A DNA stretch of 64,000 bases from an uncultured Chloroflexia bacterium (GCA_963697135.1 CAVOMZ010000007.1:209110-273109), one strand, 5' to 3'; positions 3,485-54,026 are shown, counted from the first letter of the stretch. A program made the numbers and translations. Notes: generated by a model not told the origin, from the letters alone.

Positions 3485-3635
3485 TCTGCGCCCTCTCCGA
3501 GAGAGGGTCGGATGCGCACGCCGGCGGCCGCCCCGCTATCATGCGCTCGGGGCACGTTGTGCCGGGCGCGGTGCTGCGCCAGACACCCCAGGGCCTCCTG
3601 CCGCTTCCAGGATCACGACGAGGAAGCTACCGCTG

Positions 3636-4727
3636 ATGTCGAACCCCACGCCCCGGTCGCCAGGCAGCAACTGGCTGGCGTTCGCCTTCCTGGGCGGGGT
3701 GCTGGCCCTGATCGCCGGGCTGATCTGGGCGGTCCTGGCGGGCAAGCTCGAGCCGCCGGCGCCGGTCACGACCGAGGCCCAGGCCACCCGCGACCTGTAC
3801 AACTTCGTCTTCGTCGTGGCCGCGGTGATCTTCCTCTTCGTCGAGGCCCTGATCGTCTTCGCGGTCATCCGCTACCGGCGCAAGCCGACCGACACCGAGC
3901 TGCCGCCGCAGATCCACGGCAACAGCCTCCTCGAAGTCCTCTGGACGGTCATCCCGACGATCCTCGTCGTGATCCTGTTCATCTTCTCGTGGAACACCCT
4001 CAACACGGTCGATGCGGTCTCGCCGGCCCCGGCCCTGACCGTGCGGGCCGTGGCGGCCCAGTTCGAATGGGAGTTCGACTACCTCGCCCCGGACGGCCAG
4101 ACGGTCCAGTTCCGACAGCAGACGCCCGAGCTCGACCTGCCGGTCGGGGTGGACGTCCACGTGATCCTCCGCTCGAACGACGTGATCCACGCGTTCTACG
4201 TCCCGAAGTTCCTGTTCAAGCGGGACGTCGTCCCGGGCCTCGAGAACAACTTCGACTTCACGATCGATCCGGCCGACGTCAACCAGACCTTCCGGGGCCA
4301 GTGCGCCGAGTTCTGCGGAACGTTCCACAGCACGATGCTGTTCTCGGTCAAGGCGCTCAGCCCGACCGACTTCAACACCTGGCTGCAGAATCAGATCAAG
4401 ACCGCGGCGGCCACGCCGGCGCCGGCGCCATCGGGTGGCGGGACGGCCGCCACGACCCTCGACCTGACCGCCCACAACATTGCCTACGACACGTCTTCGC
4501 TCGCGGCGCCGGCTGGCCAGCCGTTCATCATCAACTTCACGAACAACGACCCGAGCGTGCCCCACAACGTCCAGATCGCCGACGGAACCGGCCAGGTCAT
4601 CTTCAAGGGCGAGCTCGTGACCGGCCCCGACCATCGCCAGTATCCGATCCCGGCCCTGGCGGCCGGCACCTACACCTTCTCCTGTTCCGTTCACCCGCAG
4701 ATGACCGGAACGCTCACGGTCAAGTAA
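3636..4727 (+). CDS. ctaC: Cytochrome c oxidase subunit II with an additional C-terminal type-1 copper (cupredoxin) domain
   Basis: Two N-terminal TM helices. CuA site H..CAEFCGTFHSTM. C-terminal extension ...PHNVQIADG...CSVHPQMTGTLTVK (H, C, H, M ligands). Start ATG 3636 is in frame within ORF 3339..4727. Confidence 0.85.
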   Translation: MSNPTPRSPGSNWLAFAFLGGVLALIAGLIWAVLAGKLEPPAPVTTEAQATRDLYNFVFVVAAVIFLFVEALIVFAVIRYRRKPTDTELPPQIHGNSLLEVLWTVIPTILVVILFIFSWNTLNTVDAVSPAPALTVRAVAAQFEWEFDYLAPDGQTVQFRQQTPELDLPVGVDVHVILRSNDVIHAFYVPKFLFKRDVVPGLENNFDFTIDPADVNQTFRGQCAEFCGTFHSTMLFSVKALSPTDFNTWLQNQIKTAAATPAPAPSGGGTAATTLDLTAHNIAYDTSSLAAPAGQPFIINFTNNDPSVPHNVQIADGTGQVIFKGELVTGPDHRQYPIPALAAGTYTFSCSVHPQMTGTLTVK

Positions 4728-4736
4728 GGAGCACTG

Positions 4737-6353
4737 ATGGCGACGACGACGCTGCGGGCGGGAGTGGGCTATCGGACCGGGCTGTACGAATGGCTGACCA
4801 CGACCGATCACAAGAAGATCGGGATCCTGTATCTCGCCAACTCGATCCTGATGTTCCTGCTGGGCGGCACCTTCGCCCTGGTCGTCCGGGTCGAGCTGGC
4901 CCAGCCGGGGCTCCAGTTCCTGACCGACTCCCAGTACAACCAGGCGTTCACGATCCACGCCTCGCTGATGCTCTTCCTGTTCGTCATCCCGGTCCTGGCC
5001 GGCTTCGGCAACTACCTCGTGCCGCTGATGATCGGCGCGCCGGACATGGCCTTCCCGCGGATCAACGCCTTCTCGTTCTGGCTGCTGCCCCTCGGCGCGA
5101 TCGTGATGCTCTCGGGCTTCGCCACCGGGACCGGGGCGGCGGCCGCCGGCTGGACCGAATACAGCCCGCTCGCCCAGGCGAAGTACTCGGGGATCGGGAC
5201 CGACCTGTGGATCGTGGCCCTGCTGCTGATCGGCACGAGCTCGATCCTCGGCTCGATCAACTTCATCGTCACGATCTTCAAGATGCGGGCGCCGGGGATG
5301 ACCCTGCTGCGGATGCCGATCATGGTCTGGACGATGCTCGTCACCAGCATCCTGGTCCTGATGGCCACGCCGGTCCTGACCAGCGCCCTGATCATGCTGT
5401 TCATCGACCGGAACCTGGGCGGCCACTTCTTCGACCCGGCCACCGGCGGCAACGCGATCCTGTGGCAGAACACGTTCTGGTTCTACTCCCACCCGGCCGT
5501 CTACATCATGATCCTGCCGGCGATGGGGATCATCAGCGAGATCCTGCCGGTCTTCAGCCGCAAGCCGCTCTTCGGCTACAAGGCCTTCGTGTTCGCGACG
5601 GCGGCCATCGGCGCCCTGGGCTTCTCGGTCTGGGCCCACCACATGTTCACGACCGGGGCGGTCTACCTGCCGTTCTTCAGCTTCATGACCTTCCTGATCG
5701 CGATCCCGACCGGGGTCAAGTTCTTCAACTGGATCGCCACGATGTTCCGCGGCCAGCTGACGTTCTCGACGCCGCTGCTGTACTCGCTCGGCTTCCTGAC
5801 GATGTTCCTGATCGGCGGGATCAACGGTGCCTTCAGCGCGGCCGTGCCGGTCGACTTCGCCCTGCACGACACGTACTGGGTCGTGGCCCACATCCACTAC
5901 GTCCTGTTCGGCGGCTCGGTCTTCGCGGTCTTCGCCGGGCTGTACTACTGGTGGCCCAAGATGTTCGGCCGGAGGCTGAACGAGACCCTCGGCAAGATCC
6001 AGTTCGTGTTCATGTTCATCGGCTTCAACCTGACCTTCTTCCCGATGCACATCCTCGGCCTGAGCGGGATGCCCCGCCGGATCGCCGACTATGACCCGAC
6101 GGCCGGCTGGAACGACCTGAACCTGCTGGCGACGATCGGCGGCTTCGTGATCGCCTTCAGCATCGTGCCCTTCCTGTGGAACGTGTTCATCACGTTCCGG
6201 TCGGGCGAGCCCGCCGGCGATGATCCCTGGGAGGGCAACACGCTCGAGTGGGCGACCTCCTCGCCGCCGCCGCCCTACAACTTCGATCACCTCCCGGAGA
6301 TCCGCTCCGAGCGCCCGGTCTTCGACGCCCGCCATGGGGCGAGCCACGCGTGA
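4737..6353 (+). CDS. ctaD: Cytochrome c oxidase subunit I (heme-copper oxidase, aa3 type)
   Basis: 538 aa, 12-TM COX1 signature throughout (WFFGHPEVY-like ...FYSHPAVYIMILPAMG, HHMF, HDTYWVVAHIHYV). Confidence 0.95.
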   Translation: MATTTLRAGVGYRTGLYEWLTTTDHKKIGILYLANSILMFLLGGTFALVVRVELAQPGLQFLTDSQYNQAFTIHASLMLFLFVIPVLAGFGNYLVPLMIGAPDMAFPRINAFSFWLLPLGAIVMLSGFATGTGAAAAGWTEYSPLAQAKYSGIGTDLWIVALLLIGTSSILGSINFIVTIFKMRAPGMTLLRMPIMVWTMLVTSILVLMATPVLTSALIMLFIDRNLGGHFFDPATGGNAILWQNTFWFYSHPAVYIMILPAMGIISEILPVFSRKPLFGYKAFVFATAAIGALGFSVWAHHMFTTGAVYLPFFSFMTFLIAIPTGVKFFNWIATMFRGQLTFSTPLLYSLGFLTMFLIGGINGAFSAAVPVDFALHDTYWVVAHIHYVLFGGSVFAVFAGLYYWWPKMFGRRLNETLGKIQFVFMFIGFNLTFFPMHILGLSGMPRRIADYDPTAGWNDLNLLATIGGFVIAFSIVPFLWNVFITFRSGEPAGDDPWEGNTLEWATSSPPPPYNFDHLPEIRSERPVFDARHGASHA

Positions 6354-6997: not shown

Positions 6998-7174
6998 ATG
7001 CACCCGATTCCGCATCCGCGCCTGGCCCTCCTGAGCGGGCTCCTGTTCGCCGGCGTCGGGCTCGTCTACTACGCCTTGAGCCATGACATCGGGGGCGCCT
7101 CGATGGAGATCATCCTGGGCATCGCGATGAGCCTGATGTTCTACGTCCTGATGGCCGGCTCCCCGCGCGGCTGA
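6998..7174 (+). CDS. Small two-TM membrane protein, putative oxidase subunit IV-like
   Basis: MHPIPHPRLALLSGLLFAGVGLVYYALSHDIGGASMEIILGIAMSLMFYVLMAG. Sits directly after ctaE in the operon. Hydrophobic, 58 aa. Confidence 0.4.
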   Translation: MHPIPHPRLALLSGLLFAGVGLVYYALSHDIGGASMEIILGIAMSLMFYVLMAGSPRG

Positions 7175-7202
7175 GCGCCCAGGAACTGACGAAGCCCGCC
7201 TG

Positions 7203-8285
7203 ATGGACCAGATCTGGACCTCACTCATCAACTTCATTGCCCAGTTCGTGTCGCCCGACTGGGGCAAGGTGATCGGGCTCCTGCCACTCATGCTCCTGGC
7301 CCTCGTGGGCCTCTATGGCGTCTGGCTCGTCCGGAGCCTGGCCCTGCTCGGGCCGGCCCAGCGCGGCGGCCGTCCGCTGCCACCGCTGCCGCCCGCCGGG
7401 ATCCACATGCCGGGACCGTCGCTTGCCCCGGCCTTCGGGGCGCTCGGGTTCGGCCTCGTCGTCTGGGGCCTGGTCTTCCGGGCGATCCTGCCGATCGGCC
7501 TGATCGTGCTCGTCCTGGCCCTGCTCTACTGGCTGCGCGAGGGAATGCGCGATTACGACCACATCGAGCCGACGAAGGTGATCCTGCCGGCGGTAATTCA
7601 CGATGGTCCCCCGCCCGGCGTCCACATGCCCGGGCCGTCGTTCCGGCCGATCCTGGGCGGCCTGTCGATGATGGTCATCGTGTTCGGCCTGGTCTTCGGC
7701 TGGGCCCTCTTCGTGGCCGGGCTGCTGATGCTCGGGGCAACCCTGCTCGGCTGGCTGCGCGACGCCCGGACCGAGTACAGCCTGACCGTGGAGGCCGATC
7801 GCACCGGCCACCTCCGGAACGCCCCGGCGCCGCACTACCCGAGCGGAACGCTGACGTTCTTCGCGGTCGTCCTGATCGGGGCGATCCTGGTCAACTTCGG
7901 GATCATCCCGCCGGGCAGCTCGAGCGGCGGGACGGCCGGGGCCAGTGGAGCACCCGGGGCGAGCGGCTCGCCCGGCGCCAGCGCCGAGCCCAGCGGGGTC
8001 GCGGCCGACGTCACGATCGGGGCCAAGAACATCGCCTACACCCCGAACAAGGCCGACGCGCCGGCCGGCCGGGCCTTCACGATCGCCTTTGACAACCAGG
8101 ACGCCGGGATCCCCCACAACATCTCGATCCAGACCGGGGGCGCCGGCAGCCAGCAGGTCTTCCTGGGCAAGATCGTGACCGGGCCGGTCGTCGAGATCTA
8201 CAACGTGCCGGCCCTGCCCGCCGGGACATACACCTATGTCTGCTCGGTTCATGCCACCATGACCGGGGTCCTGACCGTCAAGTAG
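7203..8285 (+). CDS. Membrane protein with an internally duplicated TM module and a C-terminal cupredoxin (type-1 Cu) domain
   Basis: Repeated GIHMPGPSLAPAFGALGFGLVVWGLVF / GVHMPGPSFRPILGGLSMMVIVFGLVF modules. Gly/Ser/Ala linker. C-terminus PHNISIQTG...CSVHATMTGVLTVK, paralogous to the COX2 C-terminal domain. Confidence 0.75.
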   Translation: MDQIWTSLINFIAQFVSPDWGKVIGLLPLMLLALVGLYGVWLVRSLALLGPAQRGGRPLPPLPPAGIHMPGPSLAPAFGALGFGLVVWGLVFRAILPIGLIVLVLALLYWLREGMRDYDHIEPTKVILPAVIHDGPPPGVHMPGPSFRPILGGLSMMVIVFGLVFGWALFVAGLLMLGATLLGWLRDARTEYSLTVEADRTGHLRNAPAPHYPSGTLTFFAVVLIGAILVNFGIIPPGSSSGGTAGASGAPGASGSPGASAEPSGVAADVTIGAKNIAYTPNKADAPAGRAFTIAFDNQDAGIPHNISIQTGGAGSQQVFLGKIVTGPVVEIYNVPALPAGTYTYVCSVHATMTGVLTVK

Positions 8286-11362: not shown

Positions 11363-11732
11363 ATGAGCGTTCCGCCCCCCATCCCGTCGATCGAGCCGGC
11401 CGAGGCCGAGCGGCGCCTGCGGGAAGGTGATCCTGACGGCCGGAGACCGCTCCTGGTCGACGTCCGGAACCTGGACGAGTTCATCGAGGCCCGGGTCGCC
11501 GGCGCCCGGTTCATCCCGCTGCCGGAGTTCGGGACCCGGTTCGAGGAGCTGCCCCGGGATCGGCCGCTCTTCCTGTTCTGTCGGTCCGGATCTCGCTCGG
11601 CAGCCGCGACGGCTCACCTCGTGCGGCCAGGGCTGGACCGACGTCAGCAACGTGAGCGGCGGCCTGATCGGCTGGCAGTGGGCGAAGCTGCCGCTCGTCG
11701 AAGGCCCGCTCGGACCGGGCGAGGGCAGCTAG
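11363..11732 (+). CDS. Rhodanese-domain sulfurtransferase. One frame shift near 11625.
   Basis: ...LLVDVRNLDEFIEARVAGARFIPLPEF...LFLFCRSGSRSAAATAHL, then after a slip ...QGWTDVSNVSGGLIGWQWAKLPLVEG. Catalytic Cys in CRSGSRS. Confidence 0.7.
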
Positions 11733-11782
11733 GCCAGCGGGGCCGGGCGCCTGTGCCCTGCCGCTCGACCCGGGCAGGCGGC

Positions 11783-13258
11783 CTAGTGGCGGCGCCGGCG
11801 GAAGCGCTCCCACAGCTGGCGGGTCTTCTCCTTGTGGGCGAAGGCCCAGCCGATCAGGATCAGCAGGATGAAGTCGACCGTGCCCGCTCCGGCGGCGCTC
11901 AGGTAGCCGAGCTGCTGGCCGATGTCGCCCCCGATCTGCAGGGCCGGAATCGTGGCCCCGACGAGGCCCAGGGCGAAGAACGGCGGTTGGGGGGCCAGGT
12001 TGGCCCGGACGCTGGCGGTGATCACGCCGGTCGCGGTGGTCCCCCCGACGAGGAACGCGTTCGAGCCGCTGGCGAGGCCCGATGAGCCGGTCAGGCCGCC
12101 GCTGCTGGCCGGCAGGTCGCTCTGGCTCAGGTGCTGCCAGCCGCTGATGTTGCCGCTCGCGTCTGGCGTGGTCCAGTAGGTCTCGGTCTGGGGGCTCGTC
12201 CCGTCGCTGCCGCCGACCAGGTAGATCACCCCGTTCGAGGTGAATCCGGCGGCGTTGGTCCGGGGAGCCGGCAGGTTGGTGGCGCCCACCCCGGTGCCCC
12301 AGCGCTGGACCACCACGGCCGCGGCCGCGCCCGAAGGCAGGGGCGAGGGCGCCGGCGAAGCCGACGCCGCAGACCCGGTGTCGGCCCGCAGGACGACGGC
12401 GGTCGGGCCGGTCGCGTCACGCCCGCCGTACATGAACAGCTCGCTGCCGATCACCGAGCCGAGGGCCTGGCTGCGCGGCTGGGGCATCGCGATCTGGTTG
12501 GTCCAGGGCAGGAGCTTGCCGGTCGGGTCGGCGGTCGCCTTCCAGACGGTCGAGGTCGGGCCGCTGCCATCCGTCCCGCCCAGGACGAACAGGCCGTCCG
12601 AGGCGGCGACGACCGTGGCCGAGGCCCGCGGGGACGGCAGGACGAGGTCCTTGCTCTCGGAGAATTCGGCGAACTGGTTGGTCGCGGCGTCCTGGGCCGA
12701 GACGAAGACCGTCGAGGTCGGCTTGCCGTCGCTGCCGAAGCCGCCGATCACGTAGATCGTGCTGTTGAGGAAGATCACGGCCGCATCGGCTCGCGGGGCC
12801 GGCAGCTTGAGCGGCGAGGTCTGCCATGGGCCGAACGTGCCGCTGAACAGGGGCGTCGTGTAGATCTGGTCGGAGACGTTCGTGCCGTCCGTGCCCCCGA
12901 TGTAGAACAGGTTCGTGCCGGCCTGGATCACCGTCCCGTCGGTTCGCGGGGCGGGCAGGGCCAGCTCGGTCGGCGAAGGCTGCCAGGGCAGGGGCGCCCC
13001 GGCCGGAGCCGGGCAGGGCAGGGTCTCATTGCTCGGCGGGCAGAGGTTGATCGGGGAGATGACGTTGACCCCGACATCGATCGTCGGGAAGACGATGAAG
13101 TAGTAGGCCCGGTCCGGGATATAGCCCAGGAGCATGATGATCGTGACGAACCAGAAGGATGCCTTCAGGAACGCCCAGGTCCAGCCCTCGCCGTCGAGCA
13201 GCCCGAACAGGACCCGTCCCCGTCCAGGGCTGCCCGCGTTGAGCGTCTGTCCCGCCAT
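11783..13258 (-). CDS. Kelch-repeat beta-propeller membrane protein with N-terminal and C-terminal TM segments
   Basis: Repeated ...LPAPRxxAAxx...LFVLGGTDGSGPTSTV... blades (at least five). The N-terminal TM is FWFVTIIMLLGYIP. The C-terminal anchor is VDFILLILIGWAFA. Confidence 0.75.
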   Translation of the reverse strand: MAGQTLNAGSPGRGRVLFGLLDGEGWTWAFLKASFWFVTIIMLLGYIPDRAYYFIVFPTIDVGVNVISPINLCPPSNETLPCPAPAGAPLPWQPSPTELALPAPRTDGTVIQAGTNLFYIGGTDGTNVSDQIYTTPLFSGTFGPWQTSPLKLPAPRADAAVIFLNSTIYVIGGFGSDGKPTSTVFVSAQDAATNQFAEFSESKDLVLPSPRASATVVAASDGLFVLGGTDGSGPTSTVWKATADPTGKLLPWTNQIAMPQPRSQALGSVIGSELFMYGGRDATGPTAVVLRADTGSAASASPAPSPLPSGAAAAVVVQRWGTGVGATNLPAPRTNAAGFTSNGVIYLVGGSDGTSPQTETYWTTPDASGNISGWQHLSQSDLPASSGGLTGSSGLASGSNAFLVGGTTATGVITASVRANLAPQPPFFALGLVGATIPALQIGGDIGQQLGYLSAAGAGTVDFILLILIGWAFAHKEKTRQLWERFRRRRH

Positions 13259-13303
13259 CGTCCTCCATCCCCGGCACTGACCCGCTGGGGGCCGGTGCGC
13301 CGT

Positions 13304-14371
13304 CTACTTGACCGCGAGCGTTCCCGTCATGTTCGGGTGGACCGCGCAGTGGTACGTGTACGCCCCGGCCGGCAGCGCCGGCACGCTGTAGTCCTTGGTC
13401 GCCGGGCCGTTGAAGATGTCGCCGGTAAAGACCGTCGAGCCGCCCGAGTTGACGATCACGACGTTGTGCGGGACCGAGGCATCCATGTTGTTGAACTGGA
13501 GGTCGAAGGCCGTGTTGGCCGGGGCCGCCAGCGTCGTCTGGGTGAAGGCGATGTTCTGGGCGTCGAGCTTGACCACCGTCTCGCCGGGGGCCGGGGTGGT
13601 GGCCGGGGTGCTGGCCGAAGGCGAGCTGGTCAGGGCCGAGCTCCAGCAGGCCGGCACCGGGGTCGCCCCGGGTGGCGGGGCGTAGTTCGGGTCGCGCCAG
13701 CCGTTGAACGTCTCGGGCTTGCCGTTCGGACCGATCACCGGTTCATTCGTGCTGGCGTCCCGGACCTGGTAGGTCATCGTGCTGGGCGCCCGGATGAAGT
13801 CGATCAGGTTCTGGATCTGGATGTAGTTCAGCGGCCCGCCGTTGATGTCGGCCCAGACCGGCATGAGGCTGTCGGGGTTGCCGCAGACGTAGCGGCCACC
13901 CACCGTCAGGACGTTCTGGATGTACTGCGGGTTCAGGTGGACGTAGAGCTTGATCTGGCTGTTCAGGACCGGCCCGATTCCGCCCTGGCCGGCGGCTCCG
14001 TGGCAACGGGCGCAGTTTGCCTCGAACAGGTTGTAGCCGGCCTCGACCGAGGTGACCTGCTGGGCCGCGACCTCGGCCTGCTGGCGGGACGAGTTGGCCA
14101 CGCCCGGAAAGCCCACGTCGTAGAACCAGTACAGGATCACGAAGACGACGACGAAGAGGGTCGCCAGGAAGCCGACCCAGCGGGCGCTACCGCTCTGGCG
14201 GACGATCCCGGCGGCCCGCTCCGGGGTAAGCGCCGCCTGGTGGGCCGAAGGTGGAGCAGAGAACCGTTCGACCGGGGCCGGCGTGCTTTCGGGGCGGGCG
14301 GCCGGCAGTCGTTCGTCGCCGCCCGAGGGCGTCGGCAGGGAGTCGTTCGGGCCGCTCATGCTCACAGGCAC
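13304..14371 (-). CDS. Membrane-anchored mono-heme cytochrome c fused to a C-terminal cupredoxin domain
   Basis: TM FLATLFVVVFVILYWF. Heme motif CARCHGAAGQGG. C-terminal VPHNVVIVNSGG...CAVHPNMTGTLAVK, paralogous to the COX2 C-terminal domain. Last gene of the bc operon. Confidence 0.85.
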   Translation of the reverse strand: MPVSMSGPNDSLPTPSGGDERLPAARPESTPAPVERFSAPPSAHQAALTPERAAGIVRQSGSARWVGFLATLFVVVFVILYWFYDVGFPGVANSSRQQAEVAAQQVTSVEAGYNLFEANCARCHGAAGQGGIGPVLNSQIKLYVHLNPQYIQNVLTVGGRYVCGNPDSLMPVWADINGGPLNYIQIQNLIDFIRAPSTMTYQVRDASTNEPVIGPNGKPETFNGWRDPNYAPPPGATPVPACWSSALTSSPSASTPATTPAPGETVVKLDAQNIAFTQTTLAAPANTAFDLQFNNMDASVPHNVVIVNSGGSTVFTGDIFNGPATKDYSVPALPAGAYTYHCAVHPNMTGTLAVK

Positions 14372-15038
14372 CCCGTCGGCGACAGGGGCGGGATCAGGCC
14401 CGGCTGGCCGAGCGCCACGGGCAGCGGCCCGAGGGTGATCTTGAGGGTGTCGACCGACAGGGCGCCGGAGCCGTCGACCACGGTCGCGAAGCGGTCCATG
14501 CTCCGCGGGGCCGGGCCGTACTGGGCGACCCAGCGCCTTGATCCCGAGCCGGTCATAGCGCGAGCCGTGGCAGGGGCACTCGAACCAGAAGTTCTTGAGG
14601 CACGGGTTGGGCTTGCAGCCGAGGTGCGGACAGCGCTGGTAGAGCGCCCGGACGTTGATGTTGGTCCCGTCTCCGGTCGCATCCTGCGCCCGGCAGGAAC
14701 TGCTGGCGCGAGGTGTCGATCAGCATCACGTAGGCCTTGGCCGCGCTGTAGTAGGCCGGGAAGCCCTTGTCGATCGGCAGGCTCGAGTTCTGGGCCTTCA
14801 CGTCGGAGAAGGTCCCGATCAGGACCTTGCTCTTGTTGCCGGTGGCGATCGCCGGCCAGATGAACCCGATCGTGCCCACTCCGAGCTCGGTCAGCCACAT
14901 CGCGACGCCCAGTCCGAGGGCCGTCCGCAGGACCTTTCGGCGCGGGATGCCCTTGACCTGCTCCTTCCGAAGGGCCTTGATCGCCTCCTTGGAAAGGGCC
15001 TGGGGCCGCGCCGCCGGTTCGACCTGGTAGTTGCTCAT
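14362..15038 (-). CDS. Rieske [2Fe-2S] protein of the cytochrome bc/b6f complex. Two frame shifts near 14530 and 14700.
   Basis: The N-terminus MSNYQVEPA...RRKVLRTALGLGVAMW has a Tat-like RR signal plus TM. My own translation of the reverse complement of 14560-14660 gives VRALYQRCPHLGCKPNPCLKNFWFECPCHGSRYDR (both Rieske boxes), in a third frame relative to the flanking ORFs. Confidence 0.8.
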
Positions 15039-15060
15039 CGGAGTGCCTCGAAACGTGTGC

Positions 15061-15663
15061 TCACAGGCTGAAGTGCAGCCCGTCGGTGTTGAGATAGGGA
15101 ATGACGAAAGCGTAGCCGGGGCCCCGGAAGAAGATCCCCACGAAGGTGACCGTCAGCCCGAGGGCGCAGAACATGCTGAACAGGATGATCGCCGTCTTGC
15201 GCTGGGAGGGCCGGGTGGCGGTCAGGTTGCCCCGGTCGACGTACGGGATCAGGGCCGCCCCGACCAGGACGAAGGTCGGCACGAGCACGCCCGCCACGGT
15301 CGGGTGGAAGTACGACAGGAGCTCCTGCAGGCCGAGGAAGTACCAGGGCGCCTTGGCCACCGCCGGGGTCACGTTCGAGTTGGCCAGCGCCTCGAGCGGG
15401 GCATTCACGAAGAGGCCCATCAGGAGCAGGAAGATCGACATGATCCCGCCGGCCAGGAACTCGATCGTGAGCAGGTGCGGCCAGGTCATGACCGTGTCGT
15501 CCGGCTCCTTCTGGACGCGGACGACGGCATCCTGCTTGACCAGGGCCAGCAGCCGATACGGCCGGGCCGACATCGGCACGCGCTGCTTGTCGATCTCGGT
15601 CCGACGGGCCGGATCGACCGGCACGACGGTCCGCGGCTCGGGCGGCGTCTTCACGTCAGTCAT
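15061..15663 (-). CDS. Cytochrome b6f subunit IV-like protein (C-terminal half of a split cytochrome b)
   Basis: Three TM helices and the PEWY-type motif KAPWYFLGLQELLSYF. Confidence 0.85.
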   Translation of the reverse strand: MTDVKTPPEPRTVVPVDPARRTEIDKQRVPMSARPYRLLALVKQDAVVRVQKEPDDTVMTWPHLLTIEFLAGGIMSIFLLLMGLFVNAPLEALANSNVTPAVAKAPWYFLGLQELLSYFHPTVAGVLVPTFVLVGAALIPYVDRGNLTATRPSQRKTAIILFSMFCALGLTVTFVGIFFRGPGYAFVIPYLNTDGLHFSL

Positions 15664-15787
15664 CGAACTGACTCAGGCCCCGAGGGCCCCGAGGACGAGC
15701 GCAGACCGAGGCGAAGCCGAGCATGCGAGCGAGCGCCCGTGAAGGTGCCTGAGCGAGCGGCGGAGGCGACAACGAAGGGATGTGCCG

Positions 15788-16516
15788 TCATAGCGGTCCC
15801 GAGATTCCTCCGTCCTTACGGATTCGCCAGAAGTGCACGGCGAGGAATATGGCGGCGACGAGCGGGAAAACCATGATGTGCAGGACATAGAACCGCAAGA
15901 GCGTGTTCTGGCCGACCTCCAGGCCGCCCAGCAGGATCAGCTTGGCCGGGGTGTTGAACAGCGGGGCGTAGCCGCCCATGTTCGTGCCGATCGTGATCGC
16001 CCAGTAGGCGATCTGGTCCCAGGGCAGGAGGTAGCCCGTGAACGAGAGCATCAGGGTGACGAACAGGAGGACGACCCCGACGACCCAGTTGAACTCGCGC
16101 GGCGGCTTGTAGGCCCCGTGGTAGAAGACCCGCATCATGTGCAGGAAGACGAAGAAGACCATCAGGTGGGCTGCCCACCGATGGATGTTCCGGGTCAGCA
16201 GGCCGAAGGCGACCTCGCTCTGGATCGACAGGATGTTCGAGTAGGCCTGGGTCGCCGACGGAACGTAGAAGAACATCAGGTAGACGCCGGTCACGGTCAG
16301 GACGAGGAACAGGAAGAAGCTCAGTCCACCGAGGCAGAACGTGTAGGCGAACTTGACCGCGTGCTGGCGGACGCGGACGGGGTGGATGTGCAGGAAGACG
16401 TTGTTCATGACCGCGTACGCCCGCGAACGTTCGTCGTTCGGGTAGGGCTGGCGGAAGAGCGAGCGCCACACGACGCTCCGGCGGATGCTCTGGTCCACCC
16501 GCTCGAGGAAGCTCAC
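15788..16516 (-). CDS. Cytochrome b6-like (N-terminal heme-binding half of a split cytochrome b)
   Basis: The two conserved heme-ligand His pairs sit in ...NIHRWAAHLMVFFVFLHMMRVFY... and ...VLHIMVFPLVAAIFLAVHFW. The ATG overlaps the stop of the upstream flavoprotein gene (ATGA). Confidence 0.9.
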   Translation of the reverse strand: MSFLERVDQSIRRSVVWRSLFRQPYPNDERSRAYAVMNNVFLHIHPVRVRQHAVKFAYTFCLGGLSFFLFLVLTVTGVYLMFFYVPSATQAYSNILSIQSEVAFGLLTRNIHRWAAHLMVFFVFLHMMRVFYHGAYKPPREFNWVVGVVLLFVTLMLSFTGYLLPWDQIAYWAITIGTNMGGYAPLFNTPAKLILLGGLEVGQNTLLRFYVLHIMVFPLVAAIFLAVHFWRIRKDGGISGPL

Positions 16517-18348
16517 CGGGATCCTCCTGCCACGCCGGCGGTTCCGGCGAGTTGCGCATCACGGTAGGACTCCTTGTAGAGCCGGCCGTCGCTCGAGACC
16601 TCCTGCAGCTCGAACCGCTCCATCGTAATGGCGTCGAACGGGCATCGCTTGACGCACAGGGCGCAGCGGATGCAGCGCTCCTCGTCGAGGACCATGGCCG
16701 CCCCCTGGCTCCAGCCGTAGGCCTCCTCGACCTCGGGCAGGAGGCCCTCGCTCTTGAGCTGGTTGATGTCGACCATGTGGATGACGCCCTCGGGGCAGAC
16801 ATCCGCGCAGGCACCGCACAGGACGCAGCGGAACGGGTCGAACCAGATGTTGAAGTTGCACATCAGGCAGCGGGTCGACTCGGCCACGGCCTGGTTGGCG
16901 GTGTAGCCCAGCTCGACCGGGGTGGTGAAGTTGACCGTGGGGTCGGCCGAGGGGATCCGCGTCTCGACCGGGGCCATGGGAATGTGCTGGCGGGGCAGCA
17001 CGTCGTAGAACTCGGGCATGTCGTGGCGCCACGAGCTGGTGATCTTGACGTTGGCCGCGACGCTCACGTCGGTCCGTCCGGTCAGGTAGCGGTCGATCGC
17101 GTAGGCGCACTTCTTGCCGTGCCCGGCCGCCTCGATCAGGGTCGTCGGGCCGGTCACGAAATCGCCGCAGGCGAAGACGCCCCGGACGTTCGTGGCGTAC
17201 GTCGCCGGATCGACCTTGACCCGGCCGCGGTTGATCTCGAAGCTCGCCTCGACCGGCAGGAAGGTGAGATCGGCCGCCTGGGACACGGCCGGGATCACGG
17301 TGTCTGCCTTGATCTCGAACTCCGAGCCGGGGATCGGCACGGGCGAGCGCCGGCCGGAGGCGTCCGGCTCGCCCAGCCGGTTGCGGATGAAGCGGACCGC
17401 GCTGACGTGGCCGTCCTCGCCGATCACCTCGATCGGGCTGGCCAGGAACTCCATCCGGACGCCTTCGCGCTCGGTCTCGCCCAGCTCCTCCTCGTCGACG
17501 ACCAGCTCGGAGCGGGTCCGGCGGTAGACGATGGCGACGTTCTCGGCGCCGTGGCGAAGGCTCGTCCGCGAGCAGTCCATGGCGGTGTAGCCGCCGCCGA
17601 TCACGACGACGTCGCGGCCGACCTCGAGCTCCTGGCCGAGGTTGGCCAGCTTCATGAAGTCGACCCCGTACTGGACGCCTTCCAGGTCGCCTCCGGGCAC
17701 GTCGAGGGCGACCGCGTCCATCGCTCCGGCCGTGATCGAGATCGCGTCGAAGTCGCGCTGGAGCTGCTCGAAGGTGATGTCCTTGCCGATCGTCGTGTTG
17801 AACACGAATTTCGCGCCGAGCTGCTCGACCAGGCGGATGTCCATCTCGATCGCTTCGCGCGGCAGGCGGAAGGCGGGGACCCCGATCAGCATCGTCCCGC
17901 CGCCGTAGGGCAGGCTGTCGAAGACGGTCACCTGGAAACCCTTGAGCGACAGCTCGCGAGCGACGGAGATCCCGGCGGGTCCGGCCCCGACCACGGCGAC
18001 CCGCTCGCTCCGGGGGGTGATCGCCGGGATCACATCCGGAATGCCCGAGGCCTCGTGCCACTCGACCAGGAAGCGCTTCATCGCCCGAATCGCCAGCGGC
18101 CGGTCGATGTCCCCTCGCCGGCAGGCTCGCTCGCAGGGGGCCGAGCAGACATACGAGCACATCGCGGCGACCGGATTCGGGTCGCGGCTGAGGATGTAGC
18201 CCTCCTCGAACCGGCCTTCGGCAGCGAGGTTGAGGTAACCCCGGCAGTTCGTGCCGACCGGACATGCCTCCTGGCACTCGATGTTGCACTGGAGCCATGA
18301 CGCGTCGACGGGCTGAACGAGGAATTCCTGGTTCGGGTCGATGGCCAA
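16513..18348 (-). CDS. GltD/dihydropyrimidine-dehydrogenase-like FAD/NAD(P)-binding oxidoreductase with N-terminal and C-terminal iron-sulfur (4Fe-4S) cysteine clusters
   Basis: N-terminal Cys cluster CNIECQEACPVGTNC...CSYVCSAPCERAC. Dinucleotide fold VAVVGAGPAGIS and VVVIGGGYTAMD. C-terminal ferredoxin motifs CVLCGACADVCP and CIRCALCVKRCP. Confidence 0.8.
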   Translation of the reverse strand: MAIDPNQEFLVQPVDASWLQCNIECQEACPVGTNCRGYLNLAAEGRFEEGYILSRDPNPVAAMCSYVCSAPCERACRRGDIDRPLAIRAMKRFLVEWHEASGIPDVIPAITPRSERVAVVGAGPAGISVARELSLKGFQVTVFDSLPYGGGTMLIGVPAFRLPREAIEMDIRLVEQLGAKFVFNTTIGKDITFEQLQRDFDAISITAGAMDAVALDVPGGDLEGVQYGVDFMKLANLGQELEVGRDVVVIGGGYTAMDCSRTSLRHGAENVAIVYRRTRSELVVDEEELGETEREGVRMEFLASPIEVIGEDGHVSAVRFIRNRLGEPDASGRRSPVPIPGSEFEIKADTVIPAVSQAADLTFLPVEASFEINRGRVKVDPATYATNVRGVFACGDFVTGPTTLIEAAGHGKKCAYAIDRYLTGRTDVSVAANVKITSSWRHDMPEFYDVLPRQHIPMAPVETRIPSADPTVNFTTPVELGYTANQAVAESTRCLMCNFNIWFDPFRCVLCGACADVCPEGVIHMVDINQLKSEGLLPEVEEAYGWSQGAAMVLDEERCIRCALCVKRCPFDAITMERFELQEVSSDGRLYKESYRDAQLAGTAGVAGGSR

Positions 18349-19245
18349 GTCGGAGGTCGTGCCTTTCCCTGAGCGATTGACAGGAGGAAGCGGCGGCGGG
18401 AGACCGACCAGCCGAATCTACCACTGGCACTCGCTGATGTGCAGCGAGTGAGCCGTCCGGCGAGGTGCACCGGCGCTCCCGTCAGGCAGGCGTCAGCGGG
18501 TTGACGCCCGCCGGTGGGGCAGACTACCCTCGGGCCCAGGTTCAGGCACGACCCCAGCGGCCCGGACCATGAGGAGGGTCCGGCCTGAGCGAGCTCGCGA
18601 TACTGGCAATCGGCCTGCGTGGTCGGCCTCGGCGGCCGGCTTCACCCTCCTCTCGGTGGTCCAGTCGAGGCCGCGGCCCGCACGTGAGATCCGGCTCACG
18701 GTCACCCCCAATGCGCTGCCGGCCCGGCGCGCCTCAACCCTCGCCGTCGACCGGACCCGGGCCGGGGCCGACCTGCCCGGCCGGGGCGGACCGGCCGATC
18801 CGGCCATCCTCGCCGCAAGCCGGCCGAACGACCGGCCGGCCAGAACACATGTTCCGGGCGGGCCCGACGGCGGGGCGCTCGTTGCCTTCCCGATTGCCCG
18901 CCGGATCGAGGCCGGCCAGGCGGTCACGCCCGACGTTCCGGTCGTCGGCAGGGCGCCCACCGTCGAAGCGATGGCTGCGCCGGTGGCGGTCGCCGTTGCC
19001 GTCGCCGAGCGCCCTCCGGAAGGAGCCTCGGAAGTCATCGCCGGCGCGCCCGAGTCCGACCCGATCGTCGGACGTCGGCCCTGGCCGAGCCCGGTCCGGC
19101 CGGCGAGCCGGCAGCGTCATCGGCCGATCCGCCGGCGCCATCCGGGGCGAGCCCGGCCGCAGCCACGGGCCCCTGCGCCGACGAGCGGCGCCTGGCCGGG
19201 GAGCGCTGCGACCTGGCCGATCGCCTGCGCGAGCAGTCGAACGTC

Positions 19246-20329
19246 GTGAGCCAGAGCCTGCGCGAGCAGCAGCGCGCCTACGACGCCCTCGCCGCCCGAG
19301 CGGCCCAGGCCGCCGAATCCGTCGACGCCCGCCAGATCCAGGCGGCCAAGGAGGCGGCCCGCCAGGCCTTCCGGCGGGCCCACGCCGCGGCCCGCTCGCG
19401 CGACGACATCGAGACGGCCGCCAGCGACTGGCTGGGCGAGATCAACCGGGTGAACCAGGCCGCCCGGGACGGAGCCGCGGAGGCGGTCCGGACGCGCGAC
19501 GCGTCGGCCGGCCTGGCCCTCGCCATCGAGCGGCTGAGCCTCGAGGCCGACGTGGCCCGGATCAATGCCGAGTCAGCCGCCGAAGCCTGCCATGCCGCAC
19601 GCGAGGCGTTGGCCGCCTGCGAGGAGGCCCAGGTCGATCGCCGGGCTGGGCGGGTTCCGGTCGGGGCCGGAGCCGAGGCGCCCGTGCTCGTGGCGGCCCG
19701 GCCCACGCCTCGTCGGCGGGCCGGAGCTTGAGCCGGGCGAGGTGGACGAGATCATTCCCCCGGCCGCGCGGGCCTTCGCGGGGGCCGAGCCTCGGATCCT
19801 GCGGATGCTCCACGGCGACGGGGCCGCGGTCCGGGCCGTGGTCCTTGAGGTGGCCGGGGACGACCCGGCCGATCAGCGCCGCTGGCAGCTCCTGCTGAGC
19901 AACCTCGTCGATGCCTGCGTGGCCCGGGCGATCGAGACATCCTCGCTCGAGTTCCCGCTCGAGCATCCCTTCTGGGGGCCGTTCAGCCAGGCCCAGAACC
20001 GGGACATCGCGACGGCCCTGGCCTCGCTCGGCTATCGCTTCGACGGATTGGGCGGCTTCGCCGACGGCCGGATTCCCAGCCAGCGCGACCTGTCGCTGGC
20101 CCTCGGCTACGCCGGGCTGGACCCGATGCGCCTCCGGACGTGGCCGAGCGAGGCGATGATGCCCCGCCTGTTCGAGGAGGTTCGGGTCGCCGCCGACGAA
20201 TTGGTCGCGGCCGCCGCGCCGGACCTCAGCCTGGGCGAGATGGTCGCCCTGCTGGGCGGCCGGGCCGAACCGCTGGCCGACCTCTGGAACAACTGGGGCA
20301 AGGTCCGGCCGGCCCTCCTGGAGGCCTGA
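19246..20329 (+). CDS. Hypothetical protein with a coiled-coil-like N-terminal part. Frame shift near 19570-19730. Start uncertain.
   Basis: ORF 19246..19731 (Ala/Arg/Glu-rich helical repeats) continues in ORF 19565..20329 with the non-repetitive ...LEFPLEHPFWGPFSQAQNRDIATALASLGYRFDGLGGFADGRIP... No homology recalled. Confidence 0.35.
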
Positions 20330-20351: not shown

Positions 20352-21192
20352 CTAGCCTTCGTTCGGGGCGGCCTCGGTGGCCGATTCGACAGCTTCGGCG
20401 TCGGCCGTTTCGGGCCCCCCGGCGGGCCCCTCGTCGTCTTCGTCGATCACCACGACCCGGAAGTCCTCGGCCGCGGCCGCTCCGATCCGGGCGCCGTCCT
20501 CGGCCGCCCATTCGGTGATTCGCTCGGCCAGCTTGTCCGGCTCGTGGATCTGGCTGGCGTGGGCGGCCAGGGCGGCGATCTTCCGGCTGAGCGTTGCGCT
20601 CACGTCGACCCAGGCTCGCGGCTGGGTCGTCCAGAACAGGTAGACCCGCCGGACCCGGTGGGCCGCCAGGCCGGACCGGGCGAGGGCCGGAAAGGCCATC
20701 GGATTGCGGGCGGCCGGGTAGACCGCGTCGATCGCCGCGATGCCCGGCCGCCCGATGGTCGGTGTGATTGATCCCGCCTCCGGGATAGACGATGACGTCC
20801 GGGTCCTGGGCCAGGACCGCATCGGGCCGGAAGGTGCGGATCTCCCGGACGAGCTGCTCGCGCAGGACGAGGTCGTTGGCCAGGGCCCCGTCGGGCTGGT
20901 GCAGGAAGGTGACTCCGGCGTAGCCGACGATCGCCGCGGCGGCCCGCTGCTCGGCCTCGCGCAGCTGACCCAGCTCGATCGGGTCGGCCTCGGGGTCCTC
21001 GCCGCCCTGGTCGCCGCTCGTGCAGCACACGAGCCAGCCCGAGGACCCCGCGTCGATCCAGCGGGCCGCCGTCGCGGCCGGTCCGAAGTCGGCATCATCC
21101 GGATGGGCGACGATGACCATGAATCGCTCCGGACGCCAGTCGTGCGGATCGGCCGCCGGAGGCGGCGAAGCTGGGTCGTGCAGCTCGGTCAT
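20352..21192 (-). CDS. PIG-L/LmbE-family N-acetylglucosaminyl deacetylase. Frame shift near 20770.
   Basis: FMVIVAHPDDADFGPAATAARW...VCCTSGDQGGEDP...HTDHRAAG in ORF 20107..21192, continuing as ...AALAAHASQIHEP... in ORF 20352..21098. Confidence 0.7.
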
Positions 21193-21799: not shown

Positions 21800-22493
21800 G
21801 GCTCCGAGCCTAGCAGGATCGTCTCGATCACGAGCAGGCGGCCGGCCCGGAGCTCGACCCAGGCGTCCGGCGGGCGCAGGGCGAGGACCTCGTTCGAGAG
21901 GCCGAGCGACGAGCCGGCCTCGCAGCGTCGCCCCGACCAGCGGCCAGCGCAGGCCGCCGGTCGTGACCCCGTCGGCCGGTCCATCGAAGGGCAGGAGGGT
22001 CACCAGGGCTCCGGGCCGAGGGGCCAGGTCGAGTCGGACCGGCCCGGCCCGGCTGCCGTCCAGGAGCCTGACCCGGGTCCGTCCGTCGAGCAGGGTCACC
22101 TCCCGGCCGGCCAGGCCGGGCAGGGCCAGGAGCGAGACGTTGGCGAGGAGGTGGTCGACCCGTCCGCCGAACGCTCCGAGGACGACGATGGCCCGGGCGC
22201 CCCGGCTGATCGCTGCCCGCAGGGCGAGCTCGAGATCGGATTCGTCCTTGTCGGCCGGCGAGCGGTCGATCGCAACGCCCTGCCCGGCGAAGGCGGCCAG
22301 GCCGGGCTCGCCGAGCGAGTCGGCATCGCCGACGATCAGGTCGAGACGCGACGCCGAGGGGGCTCGCCAGGAGCGCCCCGGCGTCGGCCGCGATCACCAG
22401 CTCGAGGCCGTCGGCCCAGCCCGGCCAGGCGGCGTCGAGCTCGGCCCGGGACGGTCCGAATCCTCCGGCCAGGACGAGCGCGCGGGTCACCAC
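21796..22493 (-). CDS. Thiamine pyrophosphokinase. Multiple frame shifts.
   Basis: MVTRALVLAGGFGPSRAELDAAW...ELVIAADAGA. Later pieces in other frames give ...DLELALRAA..ARAIVVLGAFGGRVDHLLANV... and a C-terminal ...LSNEVLALRPPDAWVELRAGRLLVIE. Confidence 0.5.
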
Positions 22494-23055: not shown

Positions 23056-23865
23056 CCGGCGAACCGCGCGTCGCGGTTGCGGCTATCCCGGCGGCATCCG
23101 GGTCCGCTCGGCCTGGGGCGGCAGCGGCAGCGGGCCGGCGGTCTTCGCCCTTTCGGAGGTCGGCGGAACGCTGGTCGAGCACGGCCCGCTCGTCTCGCCG
23201 ACCTACGAGCGGCTGTGCCGGGCCGAGCTGCGGGTCGAGACTCCGGCCGGGGCCTGGGCCGTCCGGCTGGCATCGCCGATCTTCGACGAGCCCGCCGTTC
23301 TGCTGTGGGACGAGCCCAGCTGCTCGTCGTCGCCTACGGCTTTGTCACGCTACGCCTTTGGAGCCCGCAGCGGCGAGCTGCGCTGGAGCCACCGCTCGCA
23401 TACGCCGCTCGTCCGGATCCTCGGCTCGTCCCGGCTGTCCCACGTGATCGTCCAGGCCGAGATCGAGACGTTCGCGATCGAGCCCGACGGCGAGGTCGCC
23501 TGGCGGATCGCCCACACTGATGTCGTGACCGAGGCGAACCTGGTCGGCGGCCGGCTCGTCCTGACGAGCTTCGCCGGCCAGCTCAGCGCGCTCGACCCGC
23601 AGACCGGCCGCCGGCCGGCTAGCCAGGCGGGGCCCAGGCCGGCTAGCCCGCAGGCTCGGGCCGGCCGGTGGACGAGCGGTGGACAGCCGTCGACCGGCCG
23701 GTCGATTGGTGGATAACTTCCGTTGACCCGGGACCGGCCGGCCGCCTATCGTTGCCGCAGCCCGGAGGGGCCGAGCGAGCGCTAACGGTCGAGATGACAT
23801 CAAGACCCACGCGCCGGGTAGGTTCCTTCGGGCCTTTCCATGCCCGATGGGTATCATCTCCGGAC

Positions 23866-24584
23866 GTGGAACCCCTCCTCCCGATCGTCCTCGGCCTCGC
23901 CTCGGTGGCCGCCGGCGGGCTGTTCCTGCGATCCTTCGGACCTGGCCAGCGGGTCGGCCGGCTCCTCGCGGCGACGCCCCAGGTGAGCGTCGAGCAGGCC
24001 GTCGCCCTGGCCGGCCGAGGCGGTCCCCCGCTACGTCCGGGTCGACGGCCGGCTCGACAGCGACGAGGACTTTCCCGACGAGCGCAACCAGCCCCTGATC
24101 TTCCGCCGCCGGCGGCTCGAGGCCTGGCGCGGCCGGCGCTGGGAGATCCTGGGCGAGGCCCGCGACGTCGTGCCGTTCCAGCTCAACGAGGGCCTCGCCG
24201 TCGATCGCGATCGACGGCCAGGCCCTCGGTGTCGGCCTGGTCGTCCTGCCCCGCGAGGCGGTCGGTGCGGCCGCCGAGGCGCCCGACCTGTTGCCCGACG
24301 GAATCGACCCCGAGACTCGCGTCCGGCTCCGGGTCGAGCAGGTCTCGGCGGTCGAGCACGCGACCGTCGTCGGCACCCCGGCCCGCGATCCGGCCGGCCA
24401 GCCGATCCTGACCGCCGGCACCGGCCGGCCGCTGATCCTGTCCACCCTCGAGCCGGCCGAGGCGATGCAGCTCCTGGCCGGGGGCCGCAACCGGGCGATC
24501 GGCGTCGCGGTCCTCCTCGTGGCCGGGCTCGCCCTGCTCGGCGTCGGCCTCGCCTGGGGCCTGCTCAGGCTGGTCGCCGGATGA
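23866..24584 (+). CDS. Hypothetical protein with N-terminal and C-terminal TM helices. Frame shifts.
   Basis: VEPLLPIVLGLASVAAGGLFL... then ...IDGQALGVGLVVLPREAV...RNRAIGVAVLLVAGLALLGVGLAWGLLRLVAG* across ORFs 23668..24411 and 24291..24584. Confidence 0.3.
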
Positions 24585-24903
24585 TCCAGCGCTCGTCCCG
24601 GAGGCGACGGCGCGGCCGGCCGGGTGGTCCTGATCACCCTGTGCATCGGCTGGCTGCTGATCGCGGCGGCGGCGACCGCCCTGGCCGCCGATCCCAGCCC
24701 GAGCCCGGGCGGGGACGCCGGTGGAGACACGCGCTCATCGGGCGAGGGCCCCGGCCTGGTCGGCTCGCCCCTGTTCGCGATCGGCGGGGTCCTCGTCGTC
24801 GCCCTGGTCAGCATCGGCCTGGCCCAGGCCTACCTCCGGGCCACCCCGGACCGCTCGGCCGCCCGGGACGTGCCGTCTGATGAGCCAGGGCCCGACTGAG
24901 CCG

Positions 24904-54012: not shown

Positions 54013-54026
54013 CGTGCTCAGCGCTC

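Follow-up and report, generated by a model that had tools for sequence, protein, structure and literature searches.

Here we describe a row of genes on the minus strand of a 64,000-nucleotide stretch of DNA from an uncultured Chloroflexia bacterium (GCA_963697135.1, CAVOMZ010000007.1:209110-273109; hereafter the window), in which the gene for an iron-sulfur (FeS) flavoprotein directly precedes those of a Rieske/cytochrome b complex. The row was read from the open reading frame (ORF) listing and translations, with Pfam and NCBIfam supporting each assignment. It runs from the flavoprotein through cytochrome b6, subunit IV, the Rieske protein and a cytochrome c-cupredoxin fusion to a Kelch membrane protein (Table 1), the order proposed in an earlier note made from this sequence alone. 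Its order is far beyond chance, and the row is a real respiratory operon. The closest relatives of the flavoprotein, at 86-92% identity, come from metagenome-assembled genomes (MAGs) named Chloroflexota or 'Candidatus Limnocylindrales', and the organism is a freshwater/soil member of the Chloroflexota, class Limnocylindria.

The flavoprotein and the membrane core

The flavoprotein and cytochrome b genes overlap by 4 nt, with the junction sequence GCAGGAGGATCCCGGTGAGC. The overlap lies where the earlier note placed it and reads GTGA rather than ATGA, with GTG as the cytochrome b start codon. A GGAGGA Shine-Dalgarno sequence is found 5 nt upstream of this GTG, inside the flavoprotein gene. The overlap coordinates are identical in L001-L005, L011, L017, L082, L087, L088, L093-L096 and L104, and the other Limnocylindria have a gap of roughly 15-110 nt instead. 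The overlap therefore supports translational coupling, which the earlier note had read from it, in the closest relatives only. A scan of 11500-18800 for promoters and terminators returned nothing above chance. At the other end of the row, the Kelch protein has hydrophobic segments at both its N- and C-terminus. Its gene is downstream where the locus extends far enough (L001-L011, L017, L082, L083, L085, L086, L088 and L098; by tblastn of the related loci it was not seen in L007, L009 and L010), and by tblastn both it and the cupredoxin domain are absent from a Limnocylindria group at 52-54% identity. The Kelch gene is thus kept only in the closest Limnocylindria, and its product may be an assembly factor or an additional subunit of the complex.

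Residues 19-101 of the flavoprotein form a Fer4_20 domain with two N-terminal FeS sites, residues 116-411 a Pyr_redox_2 domain for flavin adenine dinucleotide (FAD) and NAD(P)H, and residues 500-580 a 2x[4Fe-4S] ferredoxin domain. The cysteines number eight in the N-terminal and eight in the C-terminal part, and four FeS clusters are predicted. No transmembrane segment or signal peptide is evident from the sequence, as judged without a predictor. A YRRTR-type sequence after the second Rossmann strand is associated with NADPH specificity in GltD/NfnB enzymes, and the YRRTR found at this position fits a predicted NADPH specificity of the window protein. This second motif varies by clade, with a planctomycete type that has no RR, and the glycine motifs and cysteines are invariant across clades.

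The best phmmer matches in the PDB were 9bov_A/9bp5 (NfnABC), 9n5u_A (NfnA) and 8oh5_C, followed by NfnB (4ylf_B), NfnI (5jca_L), GltD and dihydropyrimidine dehydrogenase (DPD), and the C-terminal domain matched FwdF (5t5i). An AlphaFold2 model (pLDDT 82, pTM 0.83) gave the same picture, with StnA and NfnA at the top of the Foldseek results (TMq 0.70-0.71 over about 640 columns) and then NfnB (0.62), GltD and DPD. NCBIfam matches to PRK12771, PRK12814, gltA and gltD were all below cut-off (327 vs 472 bits for TIGR01316, 264 vs 483 for TIGR01318 and 414 vs 916 for PRK12814). No domains of the glutamate synthase large subunit GltB were found in the window or in the related locus L001, nor was an NfnA-type or formate dehydrogenase (Fdh) partner gene; the neighbor of the flavoprotein is cytochrome b. 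The earlier note had left the identity between GltD, PydA and NfnB-like and had named a nearby glutamate synthase large subunit as evidence for an unrelated pathway. The PDB, Foldseek and sub-cut-off NCBIfam comparisons all point to the NfnB-like option, and we describe the protein as a predicted NfnB/StnA/NfnA-like NADPH-FAD module to which a 2x[4Fe-4S] domain is joined at the C-terminus. Assignment as a glutamate synthase small subunit was rejected on the scores below family cut-off and the missing GltB, and the B subunit of NfnAB was rejected since, although the fold matches, there is no adjacent NfnA-type gene.

Long homologs of the flavoprotein carry N-terminal extensions with response regulator, TPR-like, rubredoxin or 2Fe-2S domains, and no cytochrome b fusion was found among them. 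One homolog, P0175 (820 amino acids), begins with a His-rich polytopic membrane domain of about 200 residues without a Pfam match, and may be a self-anchored version of the module.

From residue 59 to its GISGPL C-terminus, which they share, cytochrome b aligns to chloroplast and cyanobacterial b6 (E 3e-52 for the b6 subunit of 6rqf), and its heme-ligand histidines H112, H126, H213 and H228 correspond to b6 H86, H100, H187 and H202. The sequence CLGG (C61) corresponds to the CxGG motif of heme cn. A 58-residue N-terminal extension, which has no counterpart in solved b6, carries the sequence NNVFLH43IHP. Subunit IV has three hydrophobic stretches by eye and contains WPHLLTIEF, with a Glu/His pair whose Glu may be an axial ligand of heme cn. 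The reconstructed Rieske protein contains a twin-arginine signal (RRKVLRT), CPHLGC and CPCHGSRY; the CPCHGS-x-Y pattern provides both Ser and Tyr, hydrogen-bond donors that raise the potential. The split, the four histidines and CxGG identify a cytochrome b6/subunit IV pair of the b6f/b6c type, as far as sequence motifs can do so.

On the periplasmic side, the cytochrome c is membrane-anchored and monoheme (CARCH), and a Pro/Ala/Thr linker connects it to a type-1 copper cupredoxin. Alignment of the copper ligands gives H...C-x2-H-x2-M, with a weak match to amicyanin. Based on the window sequence and the ortholog start, this gene more likely begins at ATG 14359. The genes of an aa3 oxidase lie 7-10 kb away. 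Besides CtaG and CoxA, this cluster encodes CoxB (cytochrome oxidase subunit II) and, after the cox genes, a polytopic membrane protein. CoxB ends in a cupredoxin domain and the polytopic protein has one too, and both are paralogous to the cupredoxin of the bc-complex cytochrome c. The three domains suggest a possible relay of tethered blue-copper centers that would link the bc complex to the aa3 oxidase.

Conservation of the flavoprotein-cytochrome b linkage

A first genome scan was seeded with a 7-sequence flavoprotein alignment and gathered 80 loci, which were searched by tblastn with six window proteins. All 17 Limnocylindria genome loci (16 plus L001) have the flavoprotein immediately before cytochrome b, and each shows flavoprotein, cytochrome b, subunit IV, Rieske and cytochrome c, with the cupredoxin domain added in the close group. 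Across the 80 loci, 44 have the flavoprotein linked to bc genes. These include about 20 from Acidobacteriota, in the order flavoprotein, Rieske, cytochrome b, subunit IV, and others from Victivallales, Zixibacteria, Ardenticatenales, Abyssobacteria, Eisenbacteria, Planctomycetales and Nitrospirae. In a neighbor-joining tree, the linked flavoproteins form two coherent clades apart from unlinked homologs, with only two apparent exceptions, both at contig ends. In the flavoprotein-linked operon of a Zixibacteria locus (L035), cytochrome b and subunit IV are fused in a single 425-residue frame, an example of the b6+IV fusion treated in the evolutionary literature.

Because a flavoprotein-seeded scan sees only operons that bear a flavoprotein, a second scan of metagenome contigs was seeded with cytochrome b. 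Of the close loci (cytochrome b at least 69% identical), 24 could be assessed, and in 22 of them the flavoprotein gene immediately precedes cytochrome b. L092 and L099 are the exceptions, each with a lone cytochrome b that has no flavoprotein upstream. In L093 and L095 the flavoprotein-cytochrome b pair is followed by unrelated genes, without subunit IV and Rieske downstream. The lone copies and these pairs may be paralogous copies or rearrangements. Retention of the flavoprotein in orthologous operons, which the earlier note had proposed as a check, is thus borne out in both scans.

A motif in the N-terminal extension of cytochrome b is also conserved. His43, within the pattern (N/G)xxx[LFY]HxHP, is present in 44 of 44 linked loci and in 79 of 79 assessable metagenome homologs, including those of the ferredoxin type described below, and the Qo-site motif of subunit IV, AKAPWYFLGLQELL, replaces PEWY in all 44 linked loci. 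The heme cn motif behaves differently. CxGG is kept in Limnocylindria, in L052 and in one Nitrospirae locus, and it is lost in most Acidobacteriota, which retain the flavoprotein and His43. Since these CxGG-less complexes keep it, the flavoprotein link is independent of the b6-type quinone-reduction heme. The Limnocylindria also keep a conserved Arg close to the C-terminus of cytochrome b.

More distant loci (L107-L161, cytochrome b about 62% identical) have no flavoprotein; the upstream gene instead encodes a 2x[4Fe-4S] ferredoxin of 129-138 amino acids, which aligns to residues 501-595 of the window flavoprotein. The source names are Actinobacteria or Microthrixaceae, and the operons are of Acidimicrobiia type. 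In one annotated locus the ferredoxin gene stands between a membrane protein gene and cytochrome b, which is followed by subunit IV, Rieske and cytochrome c; nuoA and nuoB start one gene beyond these. A small membrane protein (~130-200 amino acids) precedes the ferredoxin in operons of this type. The N-terminal motif of the ferredoxins, DYVLQEVDAAWL, resembles the extreme N-terminus of linked flavoproteins, EFLVQPVDASWL, although the similarity is modest (E about 0.01). Related forms of the motif occur in other phyla, and it is missing from unlinked flavoprotein homologs.

Because the Acidimicrobiia carry the ferredoxin alone at this position, we infer from these alignments that the cytochromes b of this lineage share the ferredoxin domain, perhaps with the N-terminal strand, as their conserved partner on the cytoplasmic side and that the NADPH module is an add-on. 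The NfnB-like module looks to have been inserted into a ferredoxin-like subunit in some lineages, as judged from the same comparison. We know of no earlier description of such a stand-alone ferredoxin subunit. The earlier note had also offered the split b6/subunit IV as a marker against classical Actinobacteria. It does separate the window from Mycobacterium- and Streptomyces-type Actinobacteria, but it is a weak taxonomic marker since the Acidimicrobiia, which belong to the Actinobacteriota, share it.

Known complexes and the direction of electron flow

The window complex resembles two complexes of the anammox bacterium Kuenenia stuttgartiensis, Kuste4569-4574 and Kustd1480-1485, in which the NAD(P) oxidoreductase role falls to the subunits Kuste4570 and Kustd1483 (PMC12954380, which cites Kartal 2013 and de Almeida 2016). 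Models of these subunits contain FAD and four FeS clusters and were built from 9bp5 and 5t5i. An additional heme b is predicted at the flavoprotein interface, liganded by His43 of both Kuste4571 monomers; this N-terminal His is conserved, as His62, in Kustd1481. The Kuenenia complexes further have a Glu-ligated heme cn and Rieske potentials of +303 and +335 mV, ascribed to Ser and Tyr residues (PMC12954380). The window shares the cytoplasmic FAD/NAD(P) subunit with four predicted FeS clusters, with NfnABC 9bp5 and FwdF 5t5i among its nearest folds, as well as a split b6-type cytochrome b with the heme cn motif, the subunit IV Glu and a high-potential Rieske of the Ser(/Tyr) kind. Kuste4570 directly precedes cytochrome b Kuste4571, as read from the locus-tag numbering, and the window has the same order. 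The two His43 residues are equated by position only. There are also differences. The periplasmic partners in Kuenenia are multiheme cytochromes c and an HAO-like protein, whereas the window has one monoheme c-blue-copper fusion; subunit IV has five transmembrane helices in Kuenenia and three in the window; and the Kuenenia complexes work in an anaerobic anammoxosome, while the window operon has an aerobic setting, beside the genes of an aa3 oxidase. A search seeded with a planctomycete homolog returned only generic Planctomycetota, Phycisphaerae, Gemmataceae and Latescibacteria names, with no Kuenenia or Brocadia among them.

The complex also fits the description of cytochrome b subfamily G (Dibrova et al. 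2013/2017), a taxonomically very diverse group of short cytochromes b, with CxGG present or lost, that are found together with large proteins in which an NAD(P)-binding domain is combined with FeS cysteines (PMC5600118). According to that account, planctomycete bc operons contain such genes, the Kuenenia complexes are expressed and the two genes are close 'in many other cases'. The likeness, a short cytochrome b adjoining a large NAD(P)-FeS protein with CxGG variably lost, is judged by description, and the account names Ktedonobacteria rather than Limnocylindria (PMC5600118). No flavoprotein-linked complex is described in the passages of the Nitrospina genome paper that were consulted.

Other known systems share fewer of these features. 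The NfnB/NfnI-L and StnA/NfnA proteins (4ylf, 5jca, 8oh5, 9bov, 9n5u) have the two N-terminal FeS sites, FAD and NADP(H), and StnA and NfnA, like the window flavoprotein, have a following ferredoxin-like domain. However, these enzymes are soluble and pair with NfnA or HydBC-like subunits, whereas the window partner is a membrane cytochrome b, and any bifurcation here would be quinone-based at the Qo site, unlike the flavin-based bifurcation of Nfn/Stn. GltD and DPD belong to the same Fer4_20 plus Pyr_redox_2 superfamily but score lower, and there is no GltB/PydA-type partner; GltD in addition does not have the extra C-terminal 2x[4Fe-4S] domain. The b6c complexes of Firmicutes and heliobacteria (QcrABC/PetABCD) and the cyanobacterial b6f complex share the split b6/IV, the four histidines, CxGG, a Rieske protein exported by the twin-arginine route and GISGPL. 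They have neither a flavoprotein nor a ferredoxin subunit gene, and solved b6 structures do not have the 58-residue LHxHP extension. PDWY is a known variant of the Qo-site motif, and where b6c and b6f have PEWY or PDWY the window has APWY. Finally, the Geobacter proteins ExtO/ExtP/ExtQ include a related short cytochrome b with a Rieske protein and a small membrane partner. The window cytochrome b marginally exceeds the NCBIfam ExtP model NF040969 (297 bits vs a cut-off of 290), and subunit IV reaches 52 vs 150 for ExtQ. The ext cluster of Geobacter contains multiheme cytochromes, a porin and a rhodanese, and no flavoprotein (PMC5877670). The ExtP ('selenite/tellurite') label was rejected, as this context is absent near the window and ExtQ is below cut-off. 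Since cytochrome b exceeds the ExtP equivalog cut-off, automatic annotation would probably misname it.

Because the sequence-level hallmarks are common to both, we place the window complex with the anammox/subfamily G kind. The earlier note had regarded a flavoprotein electron link to a bc operon as a departure from the canonical arrangement; the linkage and the NfnB-like identity of the flavoprotein stand, but a flavoprotein-bearing Rieske/cytochrome b arrangement is already described, for subfamily G and for the anammox complexes (PMC5600118, PMC12954380). What is new here is an aerobic member with a monoheme c-cupredoxin exit beside an aa3 oxidase.

For Kuenenia, the 2025 study lends support to an earlier proposal in which bifurcation of the quinol electrons leads to reduction of NAD(P)+; co-migration of the complex is experimental, and NAD(P)+ reduction there is still a proposal (PMC12954380). 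By analogy, the window flavoprotein is very probably associated physically with the membrane complex. We think it somewhat probable that the row encodes one membrane complex, a Rieske/b6-subunit IV core plus the NfnB-like flavoprotein, that bifurcates quinol electrons to NADP+; bifurcation taken on its own as the direction of electron flow falls slightly short of an even call. In such a complex, the menaquinol-oxidizing core would contain heme bL, heme bH and probably heme cn, and the flavoprotein would sit on the cytoplasmic face, wired to the b hemes via its C-terminal 2x[4Fe-4S] domain and two N-terminal FeS clusters. Menaquinol would be oxidized at the modified Qo site and its electrons bifurcated. 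The first would run downhill through the high-potential Rieske protein, the tethered monoheme cytochrome c, blue copper and the aa3 oxidase to O2, and the second along bL and bH to heme cn or a His43 heme, and from there by the FeS wire and FAD to NADP+. The net effect would be NADPH made directly from the quinol pool, with protons still released outside. The persistence of the flavoprotein and His43 where the heme cn motif is lost counts for bifurcation.

Several points weigh against this interpretation. Heme cn, the nearby Arg and the His beside the Glu are compatible with a functional quinone-reduction site, which would favor an ordinary Q cycle. The case for physical association and for the direction of flow is made by analogy with Kuenenia, and that likeness in turn rests on described features, so that homology to Kuste4570 and Kuste4571 is indirect. 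The Limnocylindria clade is not united with the other linked clade when the neighbor-joining tree is midpoint-rooted. An additional source of NADPH is not obviously needed, because the window also encodes the proton-translocating transhydrogenase PntAA/PntAB/PntB. Lastly, the available sequence has frameshifts in the Rieske gene.

Electrons could also flow in the opposite direction, from NADPH through FAD and FeS clusters to heme cn/bH, with menaquinone reduced at the cytoplasmic-side site; the complex would then let electrons from NADPH into the quinone pool without pumping, or prime the Q cycle. We consider this unlikely, though it is the main alternative and has several points in its favor. 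Ferredoxin-NADP+ reductase bound to the chloroplast b6f complex in cyclic electron flow is an analog, and NfnB-type modules are reversible. The Limnocylindria keep CxGG, the subunit IV Glu/His and the C-terminal Arg, so the quinone-reduction site may function. The 2025 anammox paper also discusses explicitly the option of NADPH feeding the complex (PMC12954380). However, flow in this direction wastes about 250 mV, and many linked complexes, in Acidobacteriota and others, have lost CxGG yet retain the flavoprotein and His43. Menaquinone use is presumed for the phylum, and a high-potential-type Rieske (Ser plus Tyr) in that setting fits bifurcation better.

It is improbable that the cytoplasmic module primarily exchanges electrons with ferredoxin or flavodoxin, or acts as a redox sensor or valve, rather than turning over pyridine nucleotide. 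The NfnB-like domain would then be a lineage-specific adaptor, in line with the ferredoxin-only operons of Acidimicrobiia and with the clade-specific second Rossmann motif (the YRRTR window against the planctomycete type). Such a role does not sit well with FAD and NAD(P)H folds that are complete and, at 86-92% identity within the class, strongly conserved, or with the invariant glycine motifs and cysteines.

A flavoprotein that is an independent soluble enzyme (GltD or an Nfn/DPD-type partner), merely co-transcribed with the bc genes, is very improbable. Relatives do bear the names 'glutamate synthase small subunit' or 'formate dehydrogenase beta subunit' in NCBIfam or their source records, but every such NCBIfam match is below cut-off and the GltB, NfnA-type and Fdh partners are missing from the window and L001. 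The linkage to cytochrome b is kept across at least eight phyla despite shuffled gene order, and the pair persists in L093 and L095 where subunit IV and Rieske do not.

The earlier note had treated the Rieske gene as an ordinary member of the row and overlooked its frameshifts. The N-terminal third, the cluster-binding middle and the C-terminal third lie in frames -3, -1 and -2, and alignment with the intact 224-residue L001 ortholog shows one inserted base near 14686 and another near 14534. Across the close Limnocylindria loci L001-L011 and L017, the Rieske protein is a single full-length tblastn match (q1-221). We compared the intact ORFs of ten related loci with the window and found at least five further genes within 15 kb that are split over two or three frames; PntB also appears split. 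The density is at least six genes in about 20 kb, in addition to PntB. The same type of error breaks the flavoprotein in the sister MAGs L011 and L017, which have long-read-style contig names, and codon bias and protein identity are undiminished across the Rieske shifts. Because the neighboring genes are likewise frameshifted in an indel-prone assembly, the Rieske breaks are most likely assembly errors rather than gene decay. A decaying operon, with a true Rieske pseudogene and a complex that is non-functional in this strain, would fit two frameshifts within 150 nt, but was dropped as highly unlikely in light of the widespread neighboring frameshifts, the shared error type and the undiminished coding signal. 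The window looks like an unpolished long-read assembly, and single-ORF gene calls are therefore unreliable here.

Genomic context and wider meaning

The coordinates of the operon and of the other features are collected in Table 1. Elsewhere in the window are a run of TadE/TadG-like Flp pilus assembly genes and a WYL/WCX regulator, and one of the multi-frame genes encodes a frameshifted GAF-GGDEF protein. The Pnt genes would provide a route to NADPH that is independent of the bc complex.

Table 1 Features of the window and of related loci (window positions unless a locus is named)
Feature	Position	Strand	Description
FeS flavoprotein	16513-18348	-	611 amino acids, TTG start; Fer4_20, Pyr_redox_2, two C-terminal Fer4
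Cytochrome b6-type subunit	15788-16516	-	242 amino acids, GTG start; Pfam Cytochrome_B 8.8e-45
Subunit IV	15061-15663	-	200 amino acids; Pfam Cytochrom_B_C
Rieske [2Fe-2S] subunit	14362-15038	-	Split over three frames; Pfam Rieske on reconstructed protein
Cytochrome c-cupredoxin	13304-14371	-	Pfam Cytochrome_CBB3, Cytochrom_C, Cupredoxin_1
Kelch membrane protein	11783-13258	-	Final gene of row; Pfam Kelch; beta-propeller
GTGA overlap	16513-16516	-	4 nt; cytochrome b6 GTG start/flavoprotein TGA stop
N-terminal motif phi-x-V-x-x-V-D-x-x-W-L	18289-18330		Flavoprotein residues 7-20; also in ferredoxins of L118, L109, L148
Paralogous type-1 cupredoxin domains (three)	3249-4727; 7152-8285; 13304-14371	+; +; -	Ligands PHN...C-x2-H-x2-M, ending LTVK
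PntAA/PntAB/PntB	60670-63771	+	Proton-translocating NAD(P) transhydrogenase
PntB	62324-63771		Appears split
Multi-frame genes near Rieske	19174-20323; 20433-21144; 21923-22484; 23779-24857; 25869-28818		Relative to intact orthologs; the last is the GAF-GGDEF protein
WYL/WCX regulator	35648-36754		
TadE/TadG-like Flp pilus genes	50715-59256	-	
Lone cytochrome b	L092 4914-5726		No subunit IV or Rieske nearby
Lone cytochrome b	L099 331-1041		FLGG replaces CLGG; contig ends within gene
Fused cytochrome b + subunit IV	L035 ~3629-4882		
Stand-alone ferredoxins	L118 4521-4940; L162 2605-3021		

In a wider form, the proposal would extend to abundant aerobic bacteria of soil and freshwater, including Limnocylindria, many Acidobacteriota and others. 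Their Rieske/b complex would be a quinone-bifurcating NADPH generator; half of the menaquinol electrons would reach O2 by way of cytochrome c, blue copper and the aa3 oxidase, and half would be lifted to NADP+ along the b hemes and an FeS wire, possibly with an extra His43-ligated heme. The 2x[4Fe-4S] module, found alone in Acidimicrobiia, would be ancestral as the cytoplasmic outlet of the entire cytochrome b lineage. We put this forward tentatively and regard it as doubtful at present.

Whether a bc-type complex can export its low-potential electron to NAD(P)+ rather than recycle it to quinone has been an open question since the anammox proposal, and anammox bacteria are slow-growing and hard to handle. 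The same module in aerobic lineages, beside an ordinary aa3 oxidase, offers simpler systems for testing the idea. The carriers include Chloracidobacterium and Terracidiphilus, genera with cultured representatives. These proteins now bear the names 'glutamate synthase small subunit', 'formate dehydrogenase beta subunit' and 'ExtP', none of which fits. The function of flavoprotein-bearing complexes is still a proposal, which the aerobic carriers may make testable.

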